A stretch of DNA of 64,000 nt from Alphaproteobacteria bacterium (GCA_965232515.1 CBDDPY010000002.1:6976001-7040000); one strand, 5' to 3'. Positions 7,912 through 57,187 are shown, numbered from the stretch's first letter. The notes: generated from the sequence alone by a model not told the origin. Translations and numbers: made by a program.

Positions 7912-8210
7912 AACATGGTCCCGACCTTATGAACGGCGATGAGCATACCAAGCAGTGCAGCGCATAAAACCAGGCCGGCCCAGGCACGAGCGGCGCTTGG
8001 GGCGGAGAAAACCCACAAGATCACGGAAACATAGATGACGAAACTCGCCATCGTCCCGACAAGCACGGCCTCGGCGCGCGCCATTGGCAGAACGATCGAG
8101 AAGCATACGGCCGCCAGCGACGACAGTGCGTAGCCGCCGACCGCAGCAGCGACGACGCGGGATATGATCTGTATCCACACGCCGCGGTTCTTGATAGGGC
8201 TGGTAGGCAC
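7908..8210 (-). CDS. DUF3649-like membrane protein (start approximate)
   Basis: SRVVAAAVGGY...ARAEAV...SF...LWVFSA.SA.RAW; stop overlaps PepSY start. Confidence 0.75.
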   Translation of the reverse strand: MPTSPIKNRGVWIQIISRVVAAAVGGYALSSLAAVCFSIVLPMARAEAVLVGTMASFVIYVSVILWVFSAPSAARAWAGLVLCAALLGMLIAVHKVGTML

Positions 8211-12913: not shown

Positions 12914-13522
12914 ATGTTTTTATCGCCGCAAAATTCGGTCCTGATTGTTATCGACCCTCTAAAGTCCATCGTCTCTGGCTTTAATCCATCGATAAAGAAA
13001 GAGCTGGGGGCGAAAACGACCGCACTTCTCAGGGCGGCGACCAACTTGAACATCGCCGTCATTGTCTCGGCGCTCGGGGTTGACGGTGACACCGCTGAGT
13101 TGATCGAAGGCACGAGGATCGAAAGCGATGGCTGCCAGGTCATATGGCGCGAAACGGTCAGTCCTTGGGATGGGGGTGAGTTGCTGTCACAGCTTGAATG
13201 CTATAGCCGCCCCGCATTGGTAATCGCCGGTGTAGCAGGGACCCCCTCCATCGCGCTGACCATCCTTGGTGCGTTGCAGGAGGGCTATGACGTCCATTTC
13301 CCCACCGACATTTGTGTAGATGCATCACGAAGCCTCGATGCCGAGATCTTCCCCCTACGTCTGGCTCTGGCGGGTGCTGTGCCGACGACGCTCAATCAGG
13401 TTCTCGCCGAATGGGCGCGAGACGATCCAAAGTCCGTATGCCGCGCCGTTCTTGCCGACAGCGACCAAAAACCAAATCTTCAGATAGCGTTTTGGCGCTT
13501 ATTGGACGGTTTGAACAAGTAG
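12914..13522 (+). CDS. Isochorismatase/YcaC-like hydrolase fold protein, catalytic Cys apparently absent
   Basis: SVLIVID, LVIAG, ALQEGYDVHFPTDIC, RLALAGAVPTT...LAEWARD. Start uncertain (track ORF from 12779). Confidence 0.6.
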   Translation: MFLSPQNSVLIVIDPLKSIVSGFNPSIKKELGAKTTALLRAATNLNIAVIVSALGVDGDTAELIEGTRIESDGCQVIWRETVSPWDGGELLSQLECYSRPALVIAGVAGTPSIALTILGALQEGYDVHFPTDICVDASRSLDAEIFPLRLALAGAVPTTLNQVLAEWARDDPKSVCRAVLADSDQKPNLQIAFWRLLDGLNK

Positions 13523-13669
13523 CGCAGCTATTTGCGCACCGCATTCCTTATTCAAAGGAGTTTGGAATCCGCAGGCTGTCGAGGCTTCAATGACAATCAT
13601 AGGACAAGCATGCTGGGATGAAGATTCGGCATACCGCCTATGGGTTGATCAGAAACGCGATCTGTCAGT

Positions 13670-14116
13670 TCATCCGGCTTTTTTGTCTCGGTCGTTTCGG
13701 ACTTCGACTGCAAGGTCCGTCAACGCCGAACGGACGTCCGAGGCGGCTCTGTCGAGTTTCTCAGCAAGTGCGGCCAGTTCCCGCCGGTCGGAGGCTTCCG
13801 GGCCGCACTGCACCCGAGCCAGCATGGATTTCAGGAGATCGTCGATTGCGCATTGCGGCAGCGGGCCATTGTGGCCGGCAAGCGCCAGGAGCACTGGTTC
13901 CGGCAACGCATCGCTCTGAAGACAGACGGTTCCGTCCGGTGTCAGCGCGTTCTCGAGTTCGAGAACGCGGGCCAGTTCGACCAAAATCGGCGCAAGCGGG
14001 AATTTGAGCGTAGCGAGCTGGCTTGCGCCCGCGGCCTTATACCCCACCGTCAGGGTCGAACTCTCGGCCGAGTCGCTCCAATCGATTTCGACAAAAGGCT
14101 GTCCCTGGGATGGCAC
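13670..14116 (-). CDS. Hypothetical protein divergent from the XRE regulator
   Basis: 148-aa ORF with plausible composition and a helical C-terminus; family not recognised. Confidence 0.5.
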   Translation of the reverse strand: MPSQGQPFVEIDWSDSAESSTLTVGYKAAGASQLATLKFPLAPILVELARVLELENALTPDGTVCLQSDALPEPVLLALAGHNGPLPQCAIDDLLKSMLARVQCGPEASDRRELAALAEKLDRAASDVRSALTDLAVEVRNDRDKKAG

Positions 14117-14189
14117 GTTCGAACGTCGCCCCGCTTTTTCTTAGTTGAATGGCCCCTAACGCCCCTATTTTGCAAGGGCGATCCGAATC

Positions 14190-14219
14190 CCTAGTATACT
14201 AGGTGGCAATATACTAGGT
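14190..14219. promoter_or_regulatory. Controller (C)-protein-type double operator
   Basis: CTAG-TATA-CTAG-GTG-GCAA-TATA-CTAG: a perfect palindrome, a GTG spacer and a degenerate second site; TATACTAGGT repeats with 15-bp period, about 20 bp before the XRE gene. Confidence 0.65.
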
Positions 14220-14238
14220 ACGGCGGCTGTCTTTCGCA

Positions 14239-14457
14239 ATGACGTTGCGAGAGACAGTAGCAAGAAATTTGCGCCGAATCAGGGCCGAAAAGGGTGTTAG
14301 TCAGGAAGAATTGGCTGACCAGGCGGATATGAATCGCAATTATGTTGGCATGATCGAGCGCTGCGAGAACGCGGCTACGGTCGATACGCTGGAACGGTTC
14401 GCCGAAGCCCTTAAGGTCGATCCGGTCGAGTTCTTCTCACCACCGAAAAAGGGCTAA
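14239..14457 (+). CDS. XRE-family HTH regulator (C-protein/QseC-like)
   Basis: NLRRIRAEKGVSQEELA...RNYVGMIER...TVDTLERFAEAL. Confidence 0.85.
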   Translation: MTLRETVARNLRRIRAEKGVSQEELADQADMNRNYVGMIERCENAATVDTLERFAEALKVDPVEFFSPPKKG

Positions 14458-14521
14458 ACGGCTCTCTCCTACGCCGTCTCCATCGCTTTCCCACATGAAC
14501 CATCCGTGCCGTCTTCAGTAA

Positions 14522-14659
14522 GGCTGGCCCCGTGTTCCTCCGGGGAATCCCTCCTGCCCAGAAAGTGAAAGTCTCCCTCCCGCCGGGCGAAGCCCGGCGT
14601 CCTGAAAAGCAAAGCAGCCGGAGCTTCTTGTCGCCACCTGACCTGAAGGAGACCGGCCC
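14522..14659 (+). repeat. Structured leader element, copy 1
   Basis: AAAGTGAAAG...CGCCGGGC-GAA-GCCCGGCG...AAAGCAAAG...GGAGCTTCT...AAGGAGAC..ATG; shared with 15588-15729. Confidence 0.8.
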
Positions 14660-15538
14660 ATGCCCGCCGCCACAAAGGAGAATCCCCATTCTTCAATAGA
14701 TACGCCGTTTTCGCTGCCTGAAGGCAACGTGCAAATCGCATTTTCCGGAGGCAGATCGTCTGCTTACATGTTGCATCATATTTTGCAGGCGAATGGCTCG
14801 CTCCCCAACAGTGTGCAAGTGCTGTTCACTAACACCGGCCGCGAGTTCAACGAATCCCTCAACTTCGTTCAGGAATGCGCGTCCCGTTGGCAAGTGCCGA
14901 TCACCTGGTTGGAATACCGTCCGGACCCGCCTTATTTCGAGACGGTCAGCCATAACACCGCTTCGCGAAATGGGGAGCCGTTCGAGGCACTCATTAAAAA
15001 GCGACGCTACCTTCCAAATCAGCATGCGCGCTTTTGCACGGCGGAACTCAAGGTGCGTACGGCCTCACGATATCTTCGCTCAAAGGGTTGGGAGCATTGG
15101 ACGACCGTGTTGGGCATCCGCGCCGACGAACCGAAACGGCTAAGCGGACCGCCGCCGCGCGAGCGTTGGACCTGCGCCTATCCGCTCTCAGTGGCTGGCG
15201 TCACACGCAGGTGCGTCGAGGCGTTTTGGAAGCAACAGCCGTTCGACCTCCGACTTCCATCCGTAAATGGACGTACGCCGCTCGGCAATTGCGACGGCTG
15301 TTTTCTGAAGTCGGAGCGCTTGATCGCCTCGCTCATACGGGATTTTCCCGAACGCGCCGATTGGTGGGAGCGCATGGAGCGCGAGACGACGGAGATCGCC
15401 AACAAGCCGTCCGGCGCGCGGTTCTCGAAAAACTACTCAAGATCTGAAATGCGCGATTTCATCGAGCGTCAGTCGGACTGGATCTTCGACGACGGCGTAG
15501 ATCTGTTGTGTGCCGCCAATGGCGGCGATTGCCTTTAG
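14660..15538 (+). CDS. PAPS-reductase-family (PP-loop) protein of the phage/ICE type
   Basis: FSGGRSSAYM, NTGRE, RFCTAELK, GIRADE, GNCDGCFLKS, terminal Cys pair. Confidence 0.8.
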   Translation: MPAATKENPHSSIDTPFSLPEGNVQIAFSGGRSSAYMLHHILQANGSLPNSVQVLFTNTGREFNESLNFVQECASRWQVPITWLEYRPDPPYFETVSHNTASRNGEPFEALIKKRRYLPNQHARFCTAELKVRTASRYLRSKGWEHWTTVLGIRADEPKRLSGPPPRERWTCAYPLSVAGVTRRCVEAFWKQQPFDLRLPSVNGRTPLGNCDGCFLKSERLIASLIRDFPERADWWERMERETTEIANKPSGARFSKNYSRSEMRDFIERQSDWIFDDGVDLLCAANGGDCL

Positions 15539-15587
15539 CCCCTCGTCGAAGCGGCATTATTGGGGCGCCACGGACGAGACCGGCAAA

Positions 15588-15729
15588 CCGGCCTCGCTCT
15601 CCCGCGCCATTCCCCGAAACGTTCCCCCAAAAAGTGAAAGTCCTGTTCCAGCCGGGCGAAGCCCGGCTTCCCGGAAAGCAAAGAGGCCGGAGCTTCTCCT
15701 TATCCACTCGAACCCAAGGAGACTGGCTC
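15588..15729 (+). repeat. Structured leader element, copy 2
   Basis: CCGGCCTC...AAAGTGAAAG...AGCCGGGC-GAA-GCCCGGCT...AAAGCAAA-GAGGCCGG-AGCTTCT...AAGGAGAC..ATG. Confidence 0.8.
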
Positions 15730-17730
15730 ATGACCACCCAGCCCCAAACCGGGGAGATCGTGCATCTTCCCCTGTCCAAACTCATCATGTCCCGTGACAA
15801 CCCGCGCAAGAGCCGGGCAAAGACGCCTGACGACTTCATGGTCGCGTCGATCCGCTCCCGCGGCCTCTTGCAGAACCTCGGGGTCCGTCTATCCGAGACC
15901 AATGCCGGGAAATATGAGGTCCGCTATGGCGGCCGGCGCCTTGCAGCCCTCCGTCAACTGACAAAGGATGGACACTTCGCCAAAACCCAAGAGTTCCCCT
16001 GCCGTATCGTGCCGGACGATGACGCCGATGCATCCGAGGAGGCCTTGGCCGAAAACATCGTTCGAGAGGCGCTTAGTCCGATCGACGACTTCGAAGCCTT
16101 CGCCAAGCTGGAAGGTCTCGGCCTCAGCGTTGAGGAAATCGCACGACGTTTCGGCATAACCGAGCGGGTCGTGCGTCAACGCCTGTCCCTTGGCCAGGCG
16201 GCCCCCTGCGTCCGCAAGGCCCTTCGGGAAGGCGATATCAATCTGGAGGTCGCCAAACTGTTCGCCGGCTGTCCCGATCTCGCCCGGCAAGAGCGGGTCT
16301 TCAAGGCGATCGACGAAGGAGGCCATTTCTCGGACCACTACGTTCGCAGAATGCTTTACGAAAATGCGGCGTCGAGCAACGACTCCATCGTCAAGTTCGT
16401 CACATTGGAAGCCTATGAAGCGGCCGGCGGGACGGTCGAACGCGATCTTTTCAGCGACGAAGTTCATCTTACGGACCTGGAGCTGCTCTCGACCCTGCGG
16501 GACGCCAAGCTTGCCGAAGAAGTCGAACGTCTGACCGCCGATGGCTGGTCCTGGGTCGAAGCCCATGAAGGCTATGCCTACGATCTCATGCACGGCTTCG
16601 ACCGTATCTACGGCAAGGTGGCCGAGAAGACCCCCGAGGAACTGTCCGAAGCCGTCAAGCTTCATGAAGAGCTCGATGACCTCCTTGAGAAAAACGCCGC
16701 CGCCGAAGATTGGAGCGATGAGGATTCCGAGCGCTACGATGCGATCGAAGAAAGGCTCGATGAATTGCGCGATGTTCAACGTGCTTTCACGGCCGAACAG
16801 AAAGCCGTCGCGGGTTGCATCATCTATCCGTCTAATGACGGCATTTCCGTCCACGAAGGTCTCGTCCGTAAGGAAGACCGAAAGAAAGTTCGTGCGCTTG
16901 CGGCGGATGATGGAGGGGCTGGAGATGGTGCAACGGACGATGGCGACGAAGAAACGCCGTCCACGTCAGCCGGCTATGGCCTCGGCCTACGAAGCGATCT
17001 TTCCGTCTATAAGGCCCAGGCCGTTCAGGCGGCCCTTGCGGAGACGCCGGAGACAGCGACCCTCGTGCATCAGTTCATCCTGGTGCGGCAAATCTTCGGA
17101 CCTGTCTTCGCAGCGGCGGACGGGACGACGCAGAAGGCGAACAAAGCGCATCTGACCGTTGAACGCGGCGAGCTTGGCGAGACAGCCGCGGCCGCAATCC
17201 TCGACCGGGCCGAGCGGGCGTTGCGCGCCGACATCTTCGACAATGCAGGCCTCGTCGGAAGCTGGAATGCCTTCAAGGCGCTCGACGCGAAGGAACGGGA
17301 CAGTCTCGTCGCCTTCGCCGTGGCCATGACGGTCGAAACCATGAGCAGCGGGGCGACACTGACGGCCCTCGTCGCTCACGAGATGGATCTCGATATTCGC
17401 GATTATTGGAAGCCCACGGGGGAGAACTTCTTCGCACGCATCAAGAAGGACCAGCTCGTCGCGTTTCTGAAGGAAACGGTAGGCGGCGACCTCGCAGCCA
17501 AACTCTCCAAGGACTTCAAGGCCAAGAAACCGGAATTGGTCGATCTCTGCGACGGTCTCATCCACGAGACGACGCCGGTCGATGACAAGCACCGCCAAGC
17601 CCTGGATGGTTGGGCGCCGCAGGACATGGGCTTCTCTGCGCCGGACCCGGATGACCGCGATGAAGCCGACGAACCGGAAGGCGATGGCGCACCGGCCAAC
17701 GACATCGATGTCGGCGAAGCCGCCGCCTGA
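15730..17730 (+). CDS. Large ParB/RepB/Spo0J-domain protein typical of conjugative leading regions
   Basis: NPRK, SIRSRGLLQNL, GGRRLAAL, AENIVRE, YEAAGG..ERDLF, YWKPT.ENFF.RI.K; AAGGAG before ATG 15730. Confidence 0.88.
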   Translation: MTTQPQTGEIVHLPLSKLIMSRDNPRKSRAKTPDDFMVASIRSRGLLQNLGVRLSETNAGKYEVRYGGRRLAALRQLTKDGHFAKTQEFPCRIVPDDDADASEEALAENIVREALSPIDDFEAFAKLEGLGLSVEEIARRFGITERVVRQRLSLGQAAPCVRKALREGDINLEVAKLFAGCPDLARQERVFKAIDEGGHFSDHYVRRMLYENAASSNDSIVKFVTLEAYEAAGGTVERDLFSDEVHLTDLELLSTLRDAKLAEEVERLTADGWSWVEAHEGYAYDLMHGFDRIYGKVAEKTPEELSEAVKLHEELDDLLEKNAAAEDWSDEDSERYDAIEERLDELRDVQRAFTAEQKAVAGCIIYPSNDGISVHEGLVRKEDRKKVRALAADDGGAGDGATDDGDEETPSTSAGYGLGLRSDLSVYKAQAVQAALAETPETATLVHQFILVRQIFGPVFAAADGTTQKANKAHLTVERGELGETAAAAILDRAERALRADIFDNAGLVGSWNAFKALDAKERDSLVAFAVAMTVETMSSGATLTALVAHEMDLDIRDYWKPTGENFFARIKKDQLVAFLKETVGGDLAAKLSKDFKAKKPELVDLCDGLIHETTPVDDKHRQALDGWAPQDMGFSAPDPDDRDEADEPEGDGAPANDIDVGEAAA

Positions 17731-17761
17731 CGGCAACGACTGATCCCTTCATCAACCCAAC

Positions 17762-17794
17762 AGCGCCCGCGGTTTCCGCGGGCGCTTTTCTTTT
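17762..17794 (+). terminator. Intrinsic terminator-like hairpin between parB-like gene and ardC
   Basis: AGCGCCCGCGG-TTT-CCGCGGGCGCT-TTTCTTTT. Confidence 0.65.
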
Positions 17795-17807
17795 CCGGAG
17801 ACTGAAC

Positions 17808-18746
17808 ATGACACGCAACAAGAAACCACGCCGGGACGTGGCGCAAGAGATCACCGACCGTATCGTCAAGGCTCTCGAAGCCGGGACGCCACCCTGGAAG
17901 AAGCCGTGGGCGAACGGCCTTGGCGGCCTTCAGCCGCTGCGCAACACCGGCGCTCCCTACACCGGCATGAACGTTCTTATCCTCTGGGACCGTGCAAGCC
18001 AAATGGGCTTCGAGAACCCTCGTTGGATGACGTTTCGCCAGGCCCTGGAGCTGGGCGGACATGTACGCAAGGGTGAAAAGTCCGTATCCGTTATTTATTA
18101 CGGCAAGACGACGAAAACGCTCGAAGACGACAAGGGTGAAGAGGTCGACGAGACAATCCGCTTCCTCAAGTGCTACCCGGTTTTCAATGTCGAACAGATC
18201 GACGAACTGCCGGCGCATTTCTATCAGCATCAGCGATCAGATATCGAAAAGACGCCGCCGCCATCGGAACGCGAGGCTTTCTTTGTCCGTATCGGCGCCG
18301 ACGTGCGCCATGGCGGCGACCGCGCTTTCTATCGCCGGTCGGAAGACTTCATCCAGATGCCGCCCTACGGTGCGTTCGACGATCCGGAATGCTATTTCGC
18401 GACCCGAGCGCACGAGACGATTCACTGGTCCGGCGCGTCCCATCGCCTTGATCGAACCAAGGGAAAAACCTTCGGCGATCCGCAATACGCCTTCGAGGAA
18501 TTGGTCGCCGAAATCGGCTCGGCCATTCTTGGCGCTGCAATCGGCCTGCGGCCCGATCATATCGATGATCACGCGGCTTATGTGGGCTCCTGGCTCAAGG
18601 CGCTCAAGAACGACAAGCGCTTCATTCTGAAAGCGGCGGCAGACGCGCAGAAGGCCGCCGATTTCGTTCTAGCCCGCGCCGGACGCGGGGCCTCCAACAA
18701 CGATCAAGCCGACGCCAGCGAGAGCGGCGTCTGCTCTGCTGCGTAG
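17808..18746 (+). CDS. ardC: ArdC-family ssDNA-binding antirestriction protein (DUF1738 + zincin-like domain)
   Basis: PWKKPW, Y.GMNV..LW, WMTFRQA..LGG.VRKGEK, VFNVEQ, HETIHWSG, YAFEELVAE, AAYV.SWL. Confidence 0.9.
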   Translation: MTRNKKPRRDVAQEITDRIVKALEAGTPPWKKPWANGLGGLQPLRNTGAPYTGMNVLILWDRASQMGFENPRWMTFRQALELGGHVRKGEKSVSVIYYGKTTKTLEDDKGEEVDETIRFLKCYPVFNVEQIDELPAHFYQHQRSDIEKTPPPSEREAFFVRIGADVRHGGDRAFYRRSEDFIQMPPYGAFDDPECYFATRAHETIHWSGASHRLDRTKGKTFGDPQYAFEELVAEIGSAILGAAIGLRPDHIDDHAAYVGSWLKALKNDKRFILKAAADAQKAADFVLARAGRGASNNDQADASESGVCSAA

Positions 18747-18756
18747 GGAGGCCATT

Positions 18757-19377
18757 ATGGGTTGGACTTACACCTCCGATTATCGGGGCGGTGGCATCCG
18801 CGCCTATTTGGATCGCCAGTTCGCGAGCGAGAATGACGCCGGCAAGTGGGAGATCCTCGACAGCGCCCTGGTTCAGATGCGCCGGTACTACGCCGCCATG
18901 CGATGGACGAATAAGAAGCGCAACGAAGTTCGCACGCTCGCGATTGTCTGTCTCGTCAACTATGTGCCTCGTGCACGAGACGGCTACACGCTGGGCTGGA
19001 AAGACATGTCCGAAGACATGGGGCCGGTTGCCACGGATTGCCCGTTGCGCATCCTCGAACAACTCGACCCGCCTCCAAACGACCATGCCCGTAAATGGCG
19101 CGAAGACGTTGGCGCCTATCACGCCAACCGCCGTGCGCGACCCAAGGTCGGCGACGTCATTCGTTTGGCGACGCCGATGACGTTTACGGACGGATCTGTC
19201 GAGAGCCGTTTCCGGGCTGAACGATACCGCAAACGAGGCGTCGCCTATCGTGGCCTCACAACGGGCGGACTCTACTGGATTTCGAAAATCGAAACTGTGG
19301 ACTTCGTCATCGAGAATGCGCCGGGTGCTCAGTCGTCCCCGGCGAACGACCCGAAGACGCAAGGGTCGCTTTTCTGA
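18757..19377 (+). CDS. Conserved ICE/plasmid protein (DUF6927-like)
   Basis: MGW start, YYAA, GWKDMSEDMGP...CP.RIL, A.KWR; GGAGG RBS. Confidence 0.7.
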   Translation: MGWTYTSDYRGGGIRAYLDRQFASENDAGKWEILDSALVQMRRYYAAMRWTNKKRNEVRTLAIVCLVNYVPRARDGYTLGWKDMSEDMGPVATDCPLRILEQLDPPPNDHARKWREDVGAYHANRRARPKVGDVIRLATPMTFTDGSVESRFRAERYRKRGVAYRGLTTGGLYWISKIETVDFVIENAPGAQSSPANDPKTQGSLF

Positions 19378-19441
19378 AACGGCCTCCAACCGGGCGCCCG
19401 TTGTCAACATCTACCCTTCTAATCAGGAAAGGAGCTCTGCC

Positions 19442-19648
19442 ATGTCAGACTCACGGATTATTGTCGGCTATTCGATCATCGATGCCGACGGTCACTATCC
19501 GAGCACGCCGGAATACGGGATCGGCTGCCTCGAAGCCGCGCGCCAGGAGGCGCTCGCGCTGAACGAAGACTTCGCGGAGGAACTCGAAGGCGGCGTTTAC
19601 GCCGTCGTCACGCTGTTCGCGGACGGCACCGCGGAACACGTCGCATAA
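19442..19648 (+). CDS. Small acidic hypothetical protein (68 aa)
   Basis: AAAGGAG RBS then ATG 19442; 13 D/E versus 2 R and no K. Confidence 0.65.
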   Translation: MSDSRIIVGYSIIDADGHYPSTPEYGIGCLEAARQEALALNEDFAEELEGGVYAVVTLFADGTAEHVA

Positions 19649-19691
19649 CGGCCGGCAGCCGCGCCAAGCCCAACCTCCGCGTGGTCCTTGA

Positions 19692-19804
19692 ACCCGCACC
19701 GTGCTCCTGCATCACAAAAGAGAAAGCCAGCTTTCCGGGCGGGCGTAGGCCCGCCGCTGGAAAAGAAAGCGGGTCATCACGTCCTTTCGACAGGAGAAAG
19801 ACCC
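19692..19804 (+). repeat. Structured leader element, divergent copy 3
   Basis: ACCCGC...AAAAGAGAAAG-CCAGC...GGCGGGC-GTAG-GCCCGCC-GCTGG-AAAAGAAA-GCGGGT...AGGAG..ATG. Confidence 0.65.
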
Positions 19805-19872
19805 ATGAACGAACTTCGATCCCAGGCCGCACGTTCCCCGCGGCTCTTTGTTACGTCCGAGGAGAACTCATC

Positions 19873-20127
19873 ATGATGCGTTGTCCTCATTGCGGCTCGC
19901 ACGACTTGCGTGTCAGTGCGGAAATCACCTGCACCGTCGTCCAGAAGACATCACCAAACGGCAATGTTTATGACGCCCTCGAAGTATTGCAGGGAAGCGA
20001 ACCCTATTGGGATCGCGACACTTTCACGTCCTGCGCCGATTGTTGTCACGACGGCGAAGCCAAGGATTTCGAATTGTTGTCATCGACACATCCGCCGCAA
20101 ACGGAGACCTGTCATGAACATCGTTGA
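19873..20127 (+). CDS. Small zinc-ribbon-like hypothetical protein (84 aa)
   Basis: GAGGAG RBS; CPHCGS ... CADC motifs. Confidence 0.6.
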   Translation: MMRCPHCGSHDLRVSAEITCTVVQKTSPNGNVYDALEVLQGSEPYWDRDTFTSCADCCHDGEAKDFELLSSTHPPQTETCHEHR

Positions 20128-20449
20128 TCCGAAGGCTGACCCGTCGCCCAAGTTCGAGTCGGGCGGATCGGACATTGATGCTCTTGAAGTTGCGCCCATG
20201 CGCGATCTCTCGCAACACGTCGGCGATCTGAACAAAGAGATCGTCACGATACGTCCAGTCAGACCCGGTGAGATGCCAGATCTGTGGACCGTGATCGCAC
20301 GCCGTCACGGCGGACGCGGTGACATACTCGCTGATCAGCCGAGCCGTAGAGCTGCCTTCGCACTCGCACGCCGGTTGCGCCGCAAGCTTGTACAAGCCGA
20401 ACAGGCCGCCGGCTTGCCACCACGGTCGCGTCAAATCGTCGAACGCTAA
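20114..20449 (+). CDS. Hypothetical protein
   Basis: GGAG RBS, ATG 20114 overlapping the upstream ORF. Confidence 0.5.
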   Translation: MNIVDPKADPSPKFESGGSDIDALEVAPMRDLSQHVGDLNKEIVTIRPVRPGEMPDLWTVIARRHGGRGDILADQPSRRAAFALARRLRRKLVQAEQAAGLPPRSRQIVER

Positions 20450-20585
20450 TCGGCGTTCCAGAGCTTTCGCTCTGCGCTCGCCGCCAGACGCCTAAGCCGC
20501 CCATCTCAACTCACCCCGCGAATACACCGCCTCCGGAAGGCTCCGCAGGCGGTGTTTTCGTTCGTCCAAAACAAGGAGACACCCA

Positions 20586-23500
20586 ATGGATCTTTTCTCG
20601 CCTTCCGAAAACCCGCTCACTGAGTCCGGCGCCGCGACGCCATCGGGCTCGGAACAAACACCACCGCCTCCCGAGCCTCGAATGGAAGCGGCGCGCCTCA
20701 TCGCCTACCGTATTGCCAACGGCCAACGCATTTCCCGCGCCAAACTGCGCGAGGCCATGACCGCCTCCTATGGCGGATCGGACGCCGAAGGCGTCTGGAC
20801 ATGGAAAGACGCGTACGACGCCGCCGAGGTCGCTGAAGGTCGCCATCTGCTGAAAGTCGGCAAAGCGCTCATCGCGGCCGATCCGGCTACGGTCCTGGAA
20901 CGTCTTGAGAGCCTGGCCGCACTACAGCCGCCCAATCGTCACCGTACGGAAGAGAGCCTCGCCCTCCAACAGTTCTCCACGCCGGCGCCCTACGCCTATG
21001 CCGCCTTTCTCGCCGCCGAGGTGCGCGAGAACGACGTTCTTCTGGAGCCCTCGGCCGGCCACGGCGCGCTCGCGATATTCGGCCGCATCGGCGCCGCGCG
21101 TCTTATCCTAAACGAGCTCGACACGGATCGCGCCCGCGCGCTTACGGCTTTGTTCAGGCAGGACGTCCACAGCGAAGACGCCGCCGAGATCGACGATCGC
21201 TTACGTGATCCTACACGCCCCAGCATCGTCCTGATGAATCCGCCATTTTCGAAAAACGTCACCCGCGGTGATCATGCTGGCGAGGCCGCGGCCCATGTCT
21301 GGAGCGCCTATAAGCGTCTCGCGGCTGGAGGACGACTCGTTGCGATCACCCAACACGGATTGGTCCCCGACGCATCGACTCACGCACGTTTCTGGCAGCG
21401 TCTCTTCGAAGCCGGACGCCTGCGGCTCGCGGCTGGTCTTGATGGCGCGGTCTATGCCCGCAAAGGCGCCAACGTTTCCACCCGTCTACTGGTGATCGAC
21501 AAGCTCGCCAATGATGACACCGGCGGCGCCGATCCAAATGCGGTCTGCGAGGCGGGAACGCTTGATGGCCTTCTCCAAAAGATCGCTTCGCTGCCCCCAC
21601 GCTCAGGCGCTGTCAAGGCCGCACCGCGTCGTATCGATCGCAAGCCGCCAAGGGCGATCAAGGGTTCAACGGTGGCGCCCATCATTCGCAGTGTCTCCCG
21701 CCAGGGCGAAGAGATCGTCTACGAGATCATCGACAGCTCAGAAACCGTCCAAGCTCAAACCGACGCTTCGGGCATCTATGAGTCTTATCGCGTTGCGCGA
21801 ATTCGCATCCCTGACGCCAAAGGCCACCCCACGCCGCTGACCCAATCGACGGCGCTTGCATCGATCGCGCCGCCCGCGCCGTCCTACCGCCCACATTTGC
21901 CCAAGCTGCTTGTGACAGACGGCGTTCTGTCGAACGCCCAGCTCGAGAGCATCATCTATGCCGGCGACGCCCATAGCCGGTTCATGGACGCCGCATTTCT
22001 CCGCGATCCGGAAACCGGCGACGTCGTTGAAATCCACGCAGATGAACCAAACGCCTTCCGCCTGCGGATGGGCTATTTCATCGGCGACGGCACCGGTTGC
22101 GGCAAGGGCCGCCAGGTCGCTGGGATAATCATGGACAATTGGATCAAGGGCCGCCGCAAGGCGGTTTGGATATCCAAGTCTGACAAGCTGAAAGAAGATG
22201 CTATTCGCGACTGGACGGCGCTTTGCGGCGGCGCGAACGAGATTATTCCGCAATCACGCTACAAGCTTGGACGGCGCATCAGCGCCTATGAGGGCGTCCT
22301 TTTCACCACCTTCGCCACCCTGCGCGGATCGGGGCGCGACGGTAAGGCATCGCGTCTCGATCAGCTTCTTGAATGGCTCGGGGAAGATTTCGACGGCGTG
22401 GTTGCCTTCGACGAGGCGCACGCGATGCAGAACGCCGCCGCCGTAAAGAGCGACCGGGGCTTAAAGGCCGCGTCGCAACAGGGCCGCGCAGGGGTCGATC
22501 TGCAACTGCGCGCTCCCGGCGCCCGTATCGTCTATGCCAGCGCCACGGGCGCGTCGGCCGTGGAGAACCTAGCCTATGCGGAACGGCTCGGGCTTTGGCG
22601 CGGCGCGGACGCCCCGTTCAAGTCGCGCGAGCATTTCATCAGTGAGATGAATAAGGGTGGTGTCGCCGCCATGGAGATGGTCTGCCGCGATCTTAAGGCC
22701 ATGGGCCTCTACTGCGCCCGCAACCTTTCTTTCGACGGGGTCGAATACGCTTTTCTCGATCACACGCTTACGCCGCAGCAAATCGAAATCTACGATTCTT
22801 ATGCGGACGCGTTCAAAATCATCCATCACAATCTCGAAGCCGCTCTTGAGGCGATGAACGTCGTCGATGAAGACGGCACCAGGAACCGCAATGCCGTGTC
22901 AGCGGCCCGCTCGGCGTTCGAGTCCACCAAGCAGCGCTTCTTCAACCATCTTCTCACGGCGATGAAGGTCCCGACGCTGATCAAGGCGATCAGGACGGAT
23001 ATGGAGGAAGATCGCGCCTCTGTCATCCAAATCGTATCCACCGGCGAAGCCGTGATGGACCGCCGCCTGGCGGAGATTTCGGGGACCGACCTGCGCGAAG
23101 GCAATTTTGATCTGACACCGCGCGAAGCGGTGATGGACTATCTCGTCAATTCGTTCCCGACGCAGCTTTTCCGCATCGTGCGTAAGGAGGACGGTTCGGA
23201 AGTCGCCGAGCCCGTTTTCGACGAGACTGGCGCGCCGGTTCAGAGCCAAGAAGCTTTGGAACGCCGCGAGGCGATGATCGAACGGCTCGGCGTCTTGCCT
23301 CCGGTGACATCGGCGCTCGACCAGATTATCTGGACGTTCGGTCCGGAAGCTGTCGCCGAGATCACCGGACGCCGCCGGCGGGTCGTCCGTCACAAGGACC
23401 TGGGCAGCGAACGGGTCGAGATCGAGAACCGTCCGGCTTCTGTCAATATCGCCGAGACCAACGCTTTCATGGACGGCGCCAAGCGCATCCTGATCTTTAG

Positions 23501-25200: not shown

Positions 25201-25338
25201 CCCGAGCGAAGGGGCGGGAACCGTGCGGCCGGGCGCCCGCCTGTCAAGCGCTCACGCGCTCGGACTCGCTAAAGCGGTCCGCCCAAAGGGTGACAGCCGG
25301 GCTCCGGTCCCGACCGCAAAGGGGTCCCGCCGCTCGGG
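25201..25338. promoter_or_regulatory. Long nested hairpin upstream of DUF2493 gene (candidate ssDNA promoter)
   Basis: CCCGAGCG/CGCTCGGG, GGCGGGA/TCCCGCC, TGCGG/CCGCA and CTGTCA/TGACAG nested pairs. Confidence 0.55.
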
Positions 25339-25371
25339 AGCGCCGGGCGGCCTCGAACAAGGAGACAAGCC

Positions 25372-34934: not shown

Positions 34935-35035
34935 GAGGTAGGGCAAGATAAAAGGGACCTGCGCACAGTGCGCTGCGAGGCCAGCCTGCACATCACTTTT
35001 GCATGCGCACGGACGAAACGTCCATGCGCATGCCT
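34935..35035 (-). other. Putative oriT; nic between 34944 and 34943 on the minus strand
   Basis: Minus strand TATCTTG^CCC versus RP4 nic TATCCTG^CCC; inverted repeats GCGCAC-A-GTGCGC (34961-34973) and GCATGCGCA...TGCGCATGC (35001-35033) lie 5' of it; directly upstream of the relaxase. Confidence 0.65.
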
Positions 35036-55741: not shown

Positions 55742-56947
55742 TTAATGATCCAACTCAGCCACGCTCTCATCGTAACCGGCAGTCTTAGTTTGTGGCTTTC
55801 GCCCAAACAGAACATCGCCGATTGCCGTTGAAACCATCGCATTGGCCGCCCGTACGGGATCGTCAGCCAAGTGAGCATATCGGGCCGTGGTTTGAGCCTG
55901 CGTGTGGCCAAGGAGTTTTCCGAGGATCGGCAGACTTTGGCCAAGTCCGACACCATAAGATGCGAAGGTATGGCGCAGATCATGGATACGGATGTCCTCG
56001 AGGCCGGCGCGCTTGCGAATACGGCGCCACGGCTTTTGCAGATCGGTGAGATACTCGCCGTCCTTCTTGCCCGTAATCACATACGGATTGCCCTCAATCC
56101 GCTTGATCGCTTTCAGGACAGCAATCGTGTCTTCGCTCAGATAGACAGTCTTTTCGCCTGTTTTGGAGTCAGGCAGACGGAGCACCTTGTCCTTGAGGTC
56201 AACGAAGTCCCATTTCAGTGTTTGAATTTCTCCGAGCCGACAGCCGGTTAGAATCAAGAGCCGATATGCCGCCACGGCGGAGGGGGAGTCCGCTTCCTCA
56301 GCGTCCAACGCGTCACTCAGAGCAGTCAATTCGTCAGCCGAGAGAAAGCGCTCTCGTTTTTCCTCTTTGTACTTCTTGACGCGCAGGCAAGGGTTGCTTC
56401 CTTCCTCGCGCAAACCCCAGACTTCGGCTTGGCTCATCATTTTGGAAAGAACACCGAGCGCTCTGTTGGCCTGATAGGGAATGTCCTGCAGCTTGTGATG
56501 AAAGTCGGCAACGGTCGACCGGTCTAGGTCGGCGACTTTTCGGCTTCCGATTTTCGGTTTGATGAACAGTTTGACCGCCCGGCCGTACTCGGCCTGCGTC
56601 GACGGCTTTAGATGAACCGGGACGTATTCCTTTAGAAATCGATCGCCAAGTTGGGCGACAGTCTGTCCCTTTCGGGCTTTCTTCTCCTCGCTGGCCGTGT
56701 CTATCCCTTCCACGGCGTTTGAGATGTGCCTGAATGCGAGGCGCCGGGCTTGCTCGGTTTTCATTTTACCGTGCTTGCCTAGCGTGACGAGCCGCTGTCT
56801 GCCGCTGACCCGATAGTAGGCGATGAAGGCTTTCGAGCCGCCGGCGTTAACCCGGATGCCAAAGCCTGCCAGTTCAGAATCCCAGACGGTGAACTGTTTG
56901 CCAGTGGGGGCAATGGCGTCGACTGTGCGTTGTGTGAGTTTGGGCAT
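55742..56947 (-). CDS. Tyrosine integrase with N-terminal arm-binding domain
   Basis: WDSELAGFGIRV...G.K.F; catalytic set GCR.GE, SKTG, HDLRH, LGH, RY. Confidence 0.93.
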   Translation of the reverse strand: MPKLTQRTVDAIAPTGKQFTVWDSELAGFGIRVNAGGSKAFIAYYRVSGRQRLVTLGKHGKMKTEQARRLAFRHISNAVEGIDTASEEKKARKGQTVAQLGDRFLKEYVPVHLKPSTQAEYGRAVKLFIKPKIGSRKVADLDRSTVADFHHKLQDIPYQANRALGVLSKMMSQAEVWGLREEGSNPCLRVKKYKEEKRERFLSADELTALSDALDAEEADSPSAVAAYRLLILTGCRLGEIQTLKWDFVDLKDKVLRLPDSKTGEKTVYLSEDTIAVLKAIKRIEGNPYVITGKKDGEYLTDLQKPWRRIRKRAGLEDIRIHDLRHTFASYGVGLGQSLPILGKLLGHTQAQTTARYAHLADDPVRAANAMVSTAIGDVLFGRKPQTKTAGYDESVAELDH

Positions 56948-57015: not shown

Positions 57016-57136
57016 TTTGGAGATTCGCAGTGCACTAAAATGTGCTTAAGGGTATCATCTTAAGTATTTTTGTAAATATAATCAGTACCTTGGTGAAAGA
57101 TCGTGAGAACTTGAGAACCAGCGTGAAATTCAAAAA

Positions 57137-57187
<51 letters not shown>

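Follow-up and report, generated by a model that had tools for sequence, protein, structure and literature searches.

A repeated, putatively mRNA-borne leader module precedes establishment genes of a marine alphaproteobacterial conjugative element

The DNA analysed here, called the window throughout, is a stretch of 64,000 nucleotides (nt) from an Alphaproteobacteria bacterium (GCA_965232515.1, CBDDPY010000002.1:6976001-7040000). According to Pfam scans of this window, it harbours an integrative conjugative element (ICE). One gene row of this element contains three copies, e1, e2 and e3, of a short intergenic module composed of two purine boxes, a GC-rich hairpin between them, a ribosome-binding site and a start codon. 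All three are on the + (sense) strand, at the sites first named by an initial annotation of the sequence (14522-14659, 15588-15729 and 19692-19804). Their core is described by R1, a covariance model of 61 positions, which correspond to 14557-14617 in e1, 15626-15686 in e2 and 19713-19773 in e3. The copies and the genes around them, including open reading frames (ORFs) with lengths in amino acids (aa), are as follows:

14239-14457, + strand: gene for a protein with an XRE-type helix-turn-helix (HTH), head of the gene row (Pfam)
14557..14659, + strand: e1, whole module, beginning 5 nt ahead of box 1 and ending at the last base before the ATG of the PAPS-reductase-like gene; R1 71.9 bits
14562..14571, + strand: box 1 of e1, AAAGTGAAAG
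14581..14599, + strand: central hairpin of e1, CGCCGGGC-GAA-GCCCGGCG
14604..14614, + strand: box 2 of e1, GAAAAGCAAAG
14660..15538, + strand: PAPS-reductase-like gene after e1, 292 aa (Pfam PF01507, E 7e-8)
15626..15729, + strand: e2, whole module, before the ParB-like gene; R1 77.1 bits
15631..15640, + strand: box 1 of e2, AAAGTGAAAG
15650..15668, + strand: central hairpin of e2, AGCCGGGC-GAA-GCCCGGCT
15673..15683, + strand: box 2 of e2, GGAAAGCAAAG
15690..15729, + strand: pyrimidine tract of e2, GAGCTTCTCCTT, pairing with the ribosome-binding site (AAGGAGA..GGCTC)
15730..17730, + strand: ParB-like gene after e2, 666 aa (Pfam HTH_ParB and ParB_N)
17808 (start), + strand: ArdC gene (Pfam), followed by DUF6927, a 132-aa ORF and then e3
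19713..19804, + strand: e3, whole module, before a small ORF; R1 64.2 bits
19717..19726, + strand: box 1 of e3, AAAGAGAAAG
19738..19755, + strand: central hairpin of e3, GGCGGGC-GTAG-GCCCGCC, differing from e1 and e2 by a 4-nt loop and by G-C in place of one C-G pair
19759..19769, + strand: box 2 of e3, GGAAAAGAAAG
19805..20127, + strand: ORFs after e3, of 23 aa (19805-19876) and, in ATGA overlap, of 84 aa and cysteine-rich (19873-20127)

The single architecture that the initial annotation had ascribed to these sites, an A-rich block, a central GC hairpin, a second A-rich block, then AGGAG and ATG, was recovered in every copy and on the same strand. Box 1 is separated from the hairpin by 9-11 nt, mainly pyrimidines, and the hairpin from box 2 by 3-4 nt; the hairpin itself has the form C/A-GCCGGGC-GAA-GCCCGGC-G/T in e1 and e2. 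On the 3' side of box 2 follow a G-rich stretch, a pyrimidine tract, AAGGAG or AGGAG, and the ATG (14660, 15730 and 19805), with 34-46 nt between the end of box 2 and the start codon. A composite pattern of box 1 (AAAG-NN-AAAG), a gap and the arms of the GC hairpin matched the window three times, exactly at e1-e3, and not once in any of 100 dinucleotide-preserving shuffles. Across the whole 7.39-Mb genome it gave three forward matches at the same three places, no reverse and no control match. The three elements are real and far from chance. e1 and e2 are 85% identical over 72 nt and 78% over the leader, e2 and e3 69% over the 61-nt core; outside the module, the upstream flanks of e1 and e2 are unrelated (49% in a global alignment), with no similarity upstream of 14557.

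A protein-anchored scan retrieved two genomes with close ParB-like relatives, each carrying the module directly before that gene (L004:5882 and L005:5867). Searching with R1 added a counterpart of e3 in L004, at 9987, and two more copies in the genome of L005 (G183), namely L064 (E 3e-8) and the weak L005:3479 (E 0.34-0.7); the copies of G183 precede an 89-aa ORF, the ParB-like gene and a DUF3768 gene. In a metagenome collection, a pattern scan returned 22 loci, 18 of them with R1 E values of at most 6.5e-7: 11 lie before a ParB-like start, and the other 7 belong to the e3 type, the same small ORF following in six cases and a different ORF in one (L054). Both types occur together on three metagenome contigs; one of these holds L050 and L042, with the 4.09-kb separation also seen in the window. 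L058 (E 0.047), L044 and L047 (E 0.46) and L031 of genome G071 (E 0.006) were left out of all counts as probable chance matches; L031 and L058 have no Shine-Dalgarno sequence or start codon after the core, and L044 only a distant one, about 90 nt on.

The module was absent from all 32 other genomes of the same order, gave one weak match in 150 genomes drawn across the class, and preceded one (L073) of 29 other ParB-like loci in a 400-genome class sample. BLAST of e1, e2 and e3 against 72,556 plasmids found no match, and the six loci that a loose pattern picked out on viral contigs are all chance matches without a true hairpin. The module is restricted to one lineage of marine alphaproteobacterial conjugative elements, in which an element has two or three copies, each in front of a different gene (the window has 3, L004 2 and G183 3). 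A dispersed repeat of the MITE (miniature inverted-repeat transposable element) or REP (repetitive extragenic palindrome) type was rejected, as there are only three copies in 7.39 Mb, all before start codons and at orthologous positions in other elements. Rfam 15, including radC, STAXI and the alphaproteobacterial small RNAs, gave no match at the elements, neither at gathering score over the window nor up to E 10 over 13500-21000. As far as Rfam 15 goes, the initial annotation was right in not recognising a named family. Full-text searches of the literature yielded no description of the motif, such searches being unable to query by sequence. It is a real and conserved leader module and, as far as these searches reach, one that has not been described.

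To define its anatomy, we folded 20 distinct sequences one by one: the three window copies, four from L004/L005, L064 and 12 from metagenomes. They share the formula [AAAG-NN-AAAG], 9-13 nt, a GC hairpin of 7-8 base pairs (bp) with a loop of 3-5 nt, 5-8 nt, [AAAG(C)AAAG], a G-rich clamp, the pyrimidine tract, the ribosome-binding site and the start codon. All 20 lie on the coding strand, with a ribosome-binding site and an ATG or GTG 29-52 nt after the core. Box 1 reads AAAG-NN-AAAG or nearly so (ATAGTTAAAG, AAAGCTAGAG) and box 2 AAAG(C)AAAG, and variation within them is nearly all A/G exchange, purine for purine, as expected of an unpaired single-strand site. The hairpin is present in all 20, with 5-9 pairs, of which the inner five were fixed by the metagenome search pattern and are uninformative on conservation. 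Its second outer pair is C-G in the e1/e2 type and G-C in the e3 type, its outermost pair A-U, C-G or G-C (A·C in two copies), and its loop GAA, GGA, GAAG, GAGG, GTAG, ATGAG or CACCC; L005:3479 has a wholly different 8-bp stem. Because of this swap, the varied outermost pair, the different stem and the varied loops, what is kept is a hairpin and not a fixed word.

The distance from box to box is 44-46 nt in 19 of the 20 sequences, despite loops of 3, 4 or 5 nt, the exception being L004:9987, shortened by a 4-nt deletion. On its 5' side the module ends abruptly: some 5 nt ahead of box 1, paralogues and orthologues alike cease to be similar. From box 1 to the tract, e2 of the window and its L004 orthologue are 95.8% identical, as against 75-77% for the ParB coding DNA and 53% for the upstream flank. 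Two purine boxes, one hairpin and the 44-46 nt spacing are under selection. The module is also portable, with e1 a duplicate of e2 placed before a different gene. An extension helix of the UUCC/GGAA type, seen in most lineages, namely in e2, e3, L046, L057, the L048-type copies and L054, is missing in e1, L005u and L005b and was rejected as a universal feature.

Less of the proposed folding survived. The initial annotation had inferred selection on a fold from an outer stem that differs in sequence yet pairs each time. We compared the best 5'/3' complementarity of each copy with 500 shuffles of its upstream flank. It amounts to 6, 8 and 6 bp in e1, e2 and e3, values equalled by 25%, 1.8% and 24% of the shuffles and hence at chance level in two of the three copies. 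In 15 homologous copies it reaches 4-7 bp, equalled by 14-99% of shuffles, and the closest orthologues of e2 (L004, L040, L043) lack the partner of the e2 outer stem. RNAalifold returned the central hairpin alone, plus weak local pairs, in both subtypes, with no outer stem. Since the stem is not conserved, its covariation falls away as an argument, and the structural case first made for the elements was largely wrong.

Other identities were likewise rejected. None of the three elements appeared in a scan for intrinsic terminators, and the stem is followed by purine or mixed sequence on both strands. A DnaA-box-like TTATCCACT in the e2 loop is not kept in orthologues, and sigma-54, ECF/FecI-like 'GGAAAG-N16-TCC' and CsrA GGA motifs, sought by eye, vary in spacing or presence across the copies.

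Leaders of other ParB-like genes in the class provide a comparison. From the 29 ParB-like loci of the class-wide sample, we took the 170 nt before each start and selected by eye 15 with a CGTGACGG-type hairpin, from 15 genomes (L076, L077, L079, L083-L085, L090-L092, L094-L097, L099 and L101). The remaining 14 (L073-75, L078, L080-82, L086-89, L093, L098 and L100) have other leader types, at least three of which can be discerned, and were left out. Within the last 100 nt before the start, the 15 sister leaders carry a tandem purine box (e.g. GAGAGGAAGAGGG) and then a long hairpin, the base of which pairs UUUC with the GGAG site. In this structure 96.8% of 283 cells pair, as against 40-51% with the partner slid, and its covariation score was equalled by none of 500 shuffles. 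As many as 73 of the 283 cells (26%) are G·U on the sense strand, and 2 are A·C. As a sense-strand G·U would be A·C on the complement, this leader type, commoner than the window module at ParB-like genes, is a sense-strand RNA fold. It had no Rfam match in the four of 15 loci scanned (L077, L083, L090, L094), and we found no publication on it. In this class, ParB-like genes are commonly preceded by structured RNA leaders on the sense strand, which Rfam lacks.

The window module resembles these sister leaders in its position before ParB-like and other establishment genes on the sense strand, in a tandem purine hexamer box about 80-100 nt before the start (GAAAGTGAGAGG in L077, AAAGTGAAAG in the window) and in a pyrimidine strand resembling the 16S 3' end. 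It differs in that the long, G·U-rich hairpin of the sister leaders itself pairs with GGAG, while the window module has a short, self-contained hairpin between two purine boxes, with occlusion of the start site being optional.

Of the two functions initially suggested, a single-strand promoter and a cis-regulatory leader, the former shows none of its testable defining features at the elements. The latter is the better supported, because the module keeps to the sense strand, at a short and constant distance before the start codons of different establishment genes, and because the sister leaders are sense-strand RNA folds. We put at roughly one half the probability that the three elements are a portable sense-strand leader module of establishment (leading-region) genes that acts in the mRNA. 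In such a leader, the hairpin would hold the two unpaired, purine-only boxes side by side, and together these might form a landing platform on which the 30S subunit and S1, or else an RNA-binding protein (Hfq, for instance), could settle. Further downstream, the pyrimidine tract, with its resemblance to the 16S 3' end, would pair with the ribosome-binding site in some lineages and with box 2 in others. The platform would set the translation efficiency of the downstream gene, or the stability of the message, once the operon is transcribed in a new host. Pairing of the boxes with the 16S 3' end (...CACCTCCTTTCT) is held as an idea and not as evidence, amounting to only 4-6 A-U-rich pairs. For the tract, pairing with the ribosome-binding site beats 96.5-100% of shuffles in e2 (99%) and its orthologues (p 0-0.035, non-independent), in which the arms of the site-occluding hairpin are kept while the loop diverges. 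It is also significant in L064 (p 0.005) and L005:3479 (p 0), and in L046 and L057 the tract pairs with box 2 instead (p 0.02 and 0).

Several results weigh against such a leader. The tract-to-site pairing is not significant in e1 (p 0.44), in the e3 types (0.34-0.73) or in L046, L057 and L051 (overall p 0.15-0.73). The energies for opening the start region are 14.5, 8.4 and 6.0 kcal/mol in e1, e2 and e3, ranking 5th, 29th and 43rd among 51 window genes, so that those of e2 and e3 are unremarkable. Whole-element folding is weak relative to shuffles (z-scores -0.2 to -2.1 for both strands, as RNA and as DNA), and the central hairpin is the only helix common to all members. One-sided changes in its outer pairs gave one G·U (L041), one C·U and three A·C pairs (L042, L050, L005u), which does not favour the sense strand; as to the asymmetry of G-U versus A-C changes, proposed at the outset as a guide to the folded strand, one event against three is too few to call it. 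e3 is 69% identical to its L004 counterpart, below the neighbouring coding DNA (74-79%), and R1 found no match in the 15 sister loci, the link to which is one of architecture and position. The candidate promoter upstream of the HTH gene (see below) falls below the threshold of the promoter scan, and L004 has no such HTH gene. As to transcripts, contigs of one metatranscriptome cover parts of genes and no leader, and no reads were obtained from three poly-A runs. That all members occlude their ribosome-binding site was rejected on the pairing shuffles and opening energies; where occlusion occurs, it is lineage-specific.

After entry, a conjugative element must express its establishment genes, those against restriction among them, quickly and for a short time. 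To our knowledge, the timing of their expression is known only for a few enterobacterial plasmids, with their single-strand promoters, and for two Bacillus plasmid families. For this marine alphaproteobacterial lineage, the module offers a compact and easily recognised tag of such genes, pointing to unannotated members of the establishment set: the PAPS-reductase-like gene, the small cysteine-rich ORF, the DUF3768 gene and the 89-aa ORF. With just two boxes and one hairpin, it is also a small test object for control through RNA versus control through the entering DNA strand.

As a repeated tag before establishment genes, the module works like two known systems without being a member of either. 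The Frpo/ssi promoters of IncF and IncI leading regions, including the new classes 2-3, are described as large stem-loops that rebuild -35/-10 boxes (PMC12672017, PMC11541004). Like them, the window module occurs in several copies, in one orientation, in a region thought to enter first, upstream of establishment and anti-defence genes and with no ordinary double-strand promoter evident; unlike them, it has a single hairpin of 7-8 bp, flanked by purine tracts that are not complementary, and lacks the hexamers. We rejected a promoter of the Frpo/ssi type, given 0 promoter-like sites in 14100-20700, a conserved helix of only 7-8 bp and the folding z-scores of -0.2 to -2.1. In the pLS20/p576 family, conserved sequences, EGeRS1 and EGeRS2, are repeated before each establishment operon, that of ardC included. 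EGeRS1 spans 400-600 bp with many inverted repeats, blocks read-through, contains no constitutive promoter and acts by a mechanism given as unknown, while EGeRS2 is a repressor-controlled promoter (PMC8708921). The several copies upstream of establishment operons (3 in the window, 2 in L004, 3 in G183) recall EGeRS1, and the palindrome and XRE gene that open the row recall EGeRS2. With about 100 nt, one hairpin, no U-run and a host of another phylum, the module differs from EGeRS1, the two being set apart by their descriptions.

A further analogy, and no more than that, is to ribosome standby sites and (ARN)n Hfq sites, which are found in 5' leaders such as those of tisB and rpoS: here too, a structured start region is preceded by an unpaired A-rich stretch and a stable hairpin next to each other. 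Box 1 consists of four ARN triplets in L040, L043, L057 and L064, while the window copies break the ARN register.

Transcription of such leaders would start not at the elements but at a candidate promoter, under repressor control, ahead of the HTH gene, or would reach them by read-through. Sigma-70-like promoters number 0 on both strands of 14100-20700, with 1.2 expected, in a scan that starts about 140 nt upstream of the first gene of the row; -35/-10 boxes are lacking at the elements. Upstream of the XRE HTH gene (14170-14220) there is a TTGCAA...TATACT pair together with a 12-bp palindrome, CTAGTATACTAG (14191-14202), and a direct repeat, TATACTAGGT (14195-14204 and 14210-14219). Together these probably make up the promoter/operator from which the row is transcribed, and the promoter-like pair with its palindrome suggests repressor-controlled induction after entry, as in p576. 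Within the row, an 11-bp GC hairpin followed by a T-run lies between the ParB-like gene and ardC (17762-17786); its end and the start of ardC are only 22 nt apart. In L004 (8076-8100) it is conserved, with a compensatory change from G-C to A-T, and in L005 (~8108-8128) it is present with another stem. Lying directly before ardC, it seems to make this gene dependent on read-through or on some signal in the hairpin. A second hairpin (ACACCGCC...GGCGGTGT) with a T-run lies at ~20524-20560, about 30 nt before the start of a 1446-aa helicase gene; as in the sister leaders, the hairpin could pair with the ribosome-binding site, here GUUUUC with GGAGAC.

The remaining element, including its type IV secretion system (T4SS), is laid out as follows (Pfam scans):

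20586 and 25372 (starts), + strand: a 111-aa ORF, then the Sno/SNF2-type helicase of 1446 aa (20586) and a YAcAr/SLOG protein (25372)
further 3', + strand: cargo genes, DUF736, FseA-like regulators (PF20109, PF10074) and DUF2840
35131, 38336 and 40.7-50.4 kb, + strand: DUF3363 relaxase, TraG and Trb-type T4SS, respectively
55742-56947, - strand: tyrosine integrase, beside a tRNA fragment at 57120-57183

All genes called on 14.2-26 kb are co-oriented with the relaxase and T4SS genes, and the genes that follow the elements are of a type known from plasmid leading regions. In F and RP4, transfer genes enter the recipient last. By analogy, the 14.2-26 kb region would enter first, with the - strand being transferred. 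The module could then be a signal on this strand: a GC hairpin flanked by pyrimidine tracts (CTTTC..CTTT) that recruits RNA polymerase or primase before the complementary strand is made, yielding early (zygotic) downstream transcripts, primers or both, as a new class without -35/-10 boxes. The transferred strand would indeed be the template for these genes if transfer genes enter last. The lack of a sigma-70-like promoter (0 against 1.2 expected), the conserved terminator before ardC, the very strong conservation of the e2 core in primary sequence and the three one-sided A·C changes, which would be G·T on the - strand, are all in keeping with this, as are the several copies before establishment and anti-restriction-type genes, resembling Frpo/ssi classes 1-3 in what is described of them (PMC12672017, PMC11541004). 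Yet neither arm has -35/-10 hexamers, the closing outer stem is not conserved, and the only conserved helix has 7-8 bp, with no long fold-back and with - strand DNA folds that do not outdo shuffles (z -1.1 to -1.7). Moreover, the leader type found more often at this gene position is sense-strand RNA. Nor was a nick site found that would fix the polarity of transfer: the relaxase nick consensus YATCCTGY occurs 7 times, with 5.3 expected, and never beside the relaxase gene or its upstream inverted repeat. We consider a signal on the transferred strand unlikely, and quite unlikely its full form, a new kind of entry signal in which a mini-hairpin flanked by pyrimidine tracts starts transcription or priming on the incoming single strand without -35/-10 boxes. 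Were it true, Alphaproteobacteria would have their own counterpart of the enterobacterial Frpo promoters, and the missing ordinary promoter would be explained.

The inverted repeat just mentioned, an imperfect one of 15 bp (GCATGCGCACGGACG-AAA-CGTCCATGCGCATGC) at 35001-35033, may be the origin of transfer; it lies some 100 nt ahead of the relaxase gene, and an unannotated reading frame preceding it looks by eye like a TraF-like signal peptidase. At the integrase side, 57120-57183 matches the Rfam tRNA model with 31 bits and a truncated D-arm (ARAGORN reports none), and is probably a duplicated 3' part of a tRNA gene at the element junction. A search of 12-57.4 kb for att direct repeats marking the element ends gave no match.

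Double-stranded DNA offers another explanation, in which the hairpin is a 17-19 bp palindromic operator, perhaps with the A-rich direct repeats flanking it, bound by the ParB-like protein or the XRE repressor to shut the establishment genes down after entry. KorB of RP4 is a model for a ParB-like protein acting as a regulator on an operator. The hairpin is a perfect palindrome whose one compensatory change is symmetric, the boxes keep a constant distance of 44-46 bp, the ParB-like gene has a copy in front of it and the XRE gene heads the row. The fixed half-site spacing of a dimeric regulator is missing, however: the centre measures 3, 4 or 5 nt and differs by 1-2 bp within single elements (3 versus 4 nt among the window copies, 3 versus 5 nt on the contig that L040 and L059 share), so that a folded strand fits better than a dimer operator. 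The half-site sequence differs as well, with another palindrome altogether in L005:3479, and the XRE gene has its own, unrelated palindrome, CTAGTATACTAG, while L004 has the elements and no XRE gene. The boxes tolerate A/G exchange, and an operator would need neither strict orientation nor a fixed distance to the start codon. We regard this explanation as decidedly unlikely.

Finally, a nut/put-like signal for processive antitermination in the nascent RNA, with polymerase reading through the terminator-like hairpins before ardC and the Sno/SNF2-type helicase gene, appears very improbable: the box-hairpin layout resembles boxA/boxB of lambda, the hairpin before ardC is conserved in L004 and L005, and e2 and e3 lie upstream of the first and second hairpin, respectively, but we identified no antiterminator protein, no terminator lies between e1 and e2, and the loop sequences are not conserved, the boxB loop being what lambda N reads.

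A few observations concern the surroundings of the copies. A possible decayed fourth copy precedes the YAcAr/SLOG gene (25282-25371), with CCCAAAGGGTGACAG, a weak 4-bp hairpin, CGCAAAGGGG and then AAGGAGACAAGCCATG; its R1 E value is 1.9, and its box distance falls short by about 11 nt. In G183, a MucR/Ros-family gene (L005 2939-3415) lies immediately upstream of the copy L005:3479, while the window row is headed by the XRE gene instead. The 23-aa and 84-aa ORFs behind e3, which matched no Pfam family, form one continuous ORF with the same first residues (MN-D/E-L...) in L004 and in the L048-type contigs; the window copy (19805-20127) is therefore either frameshifted, or its N-terminus has turned into an upstream ORF.

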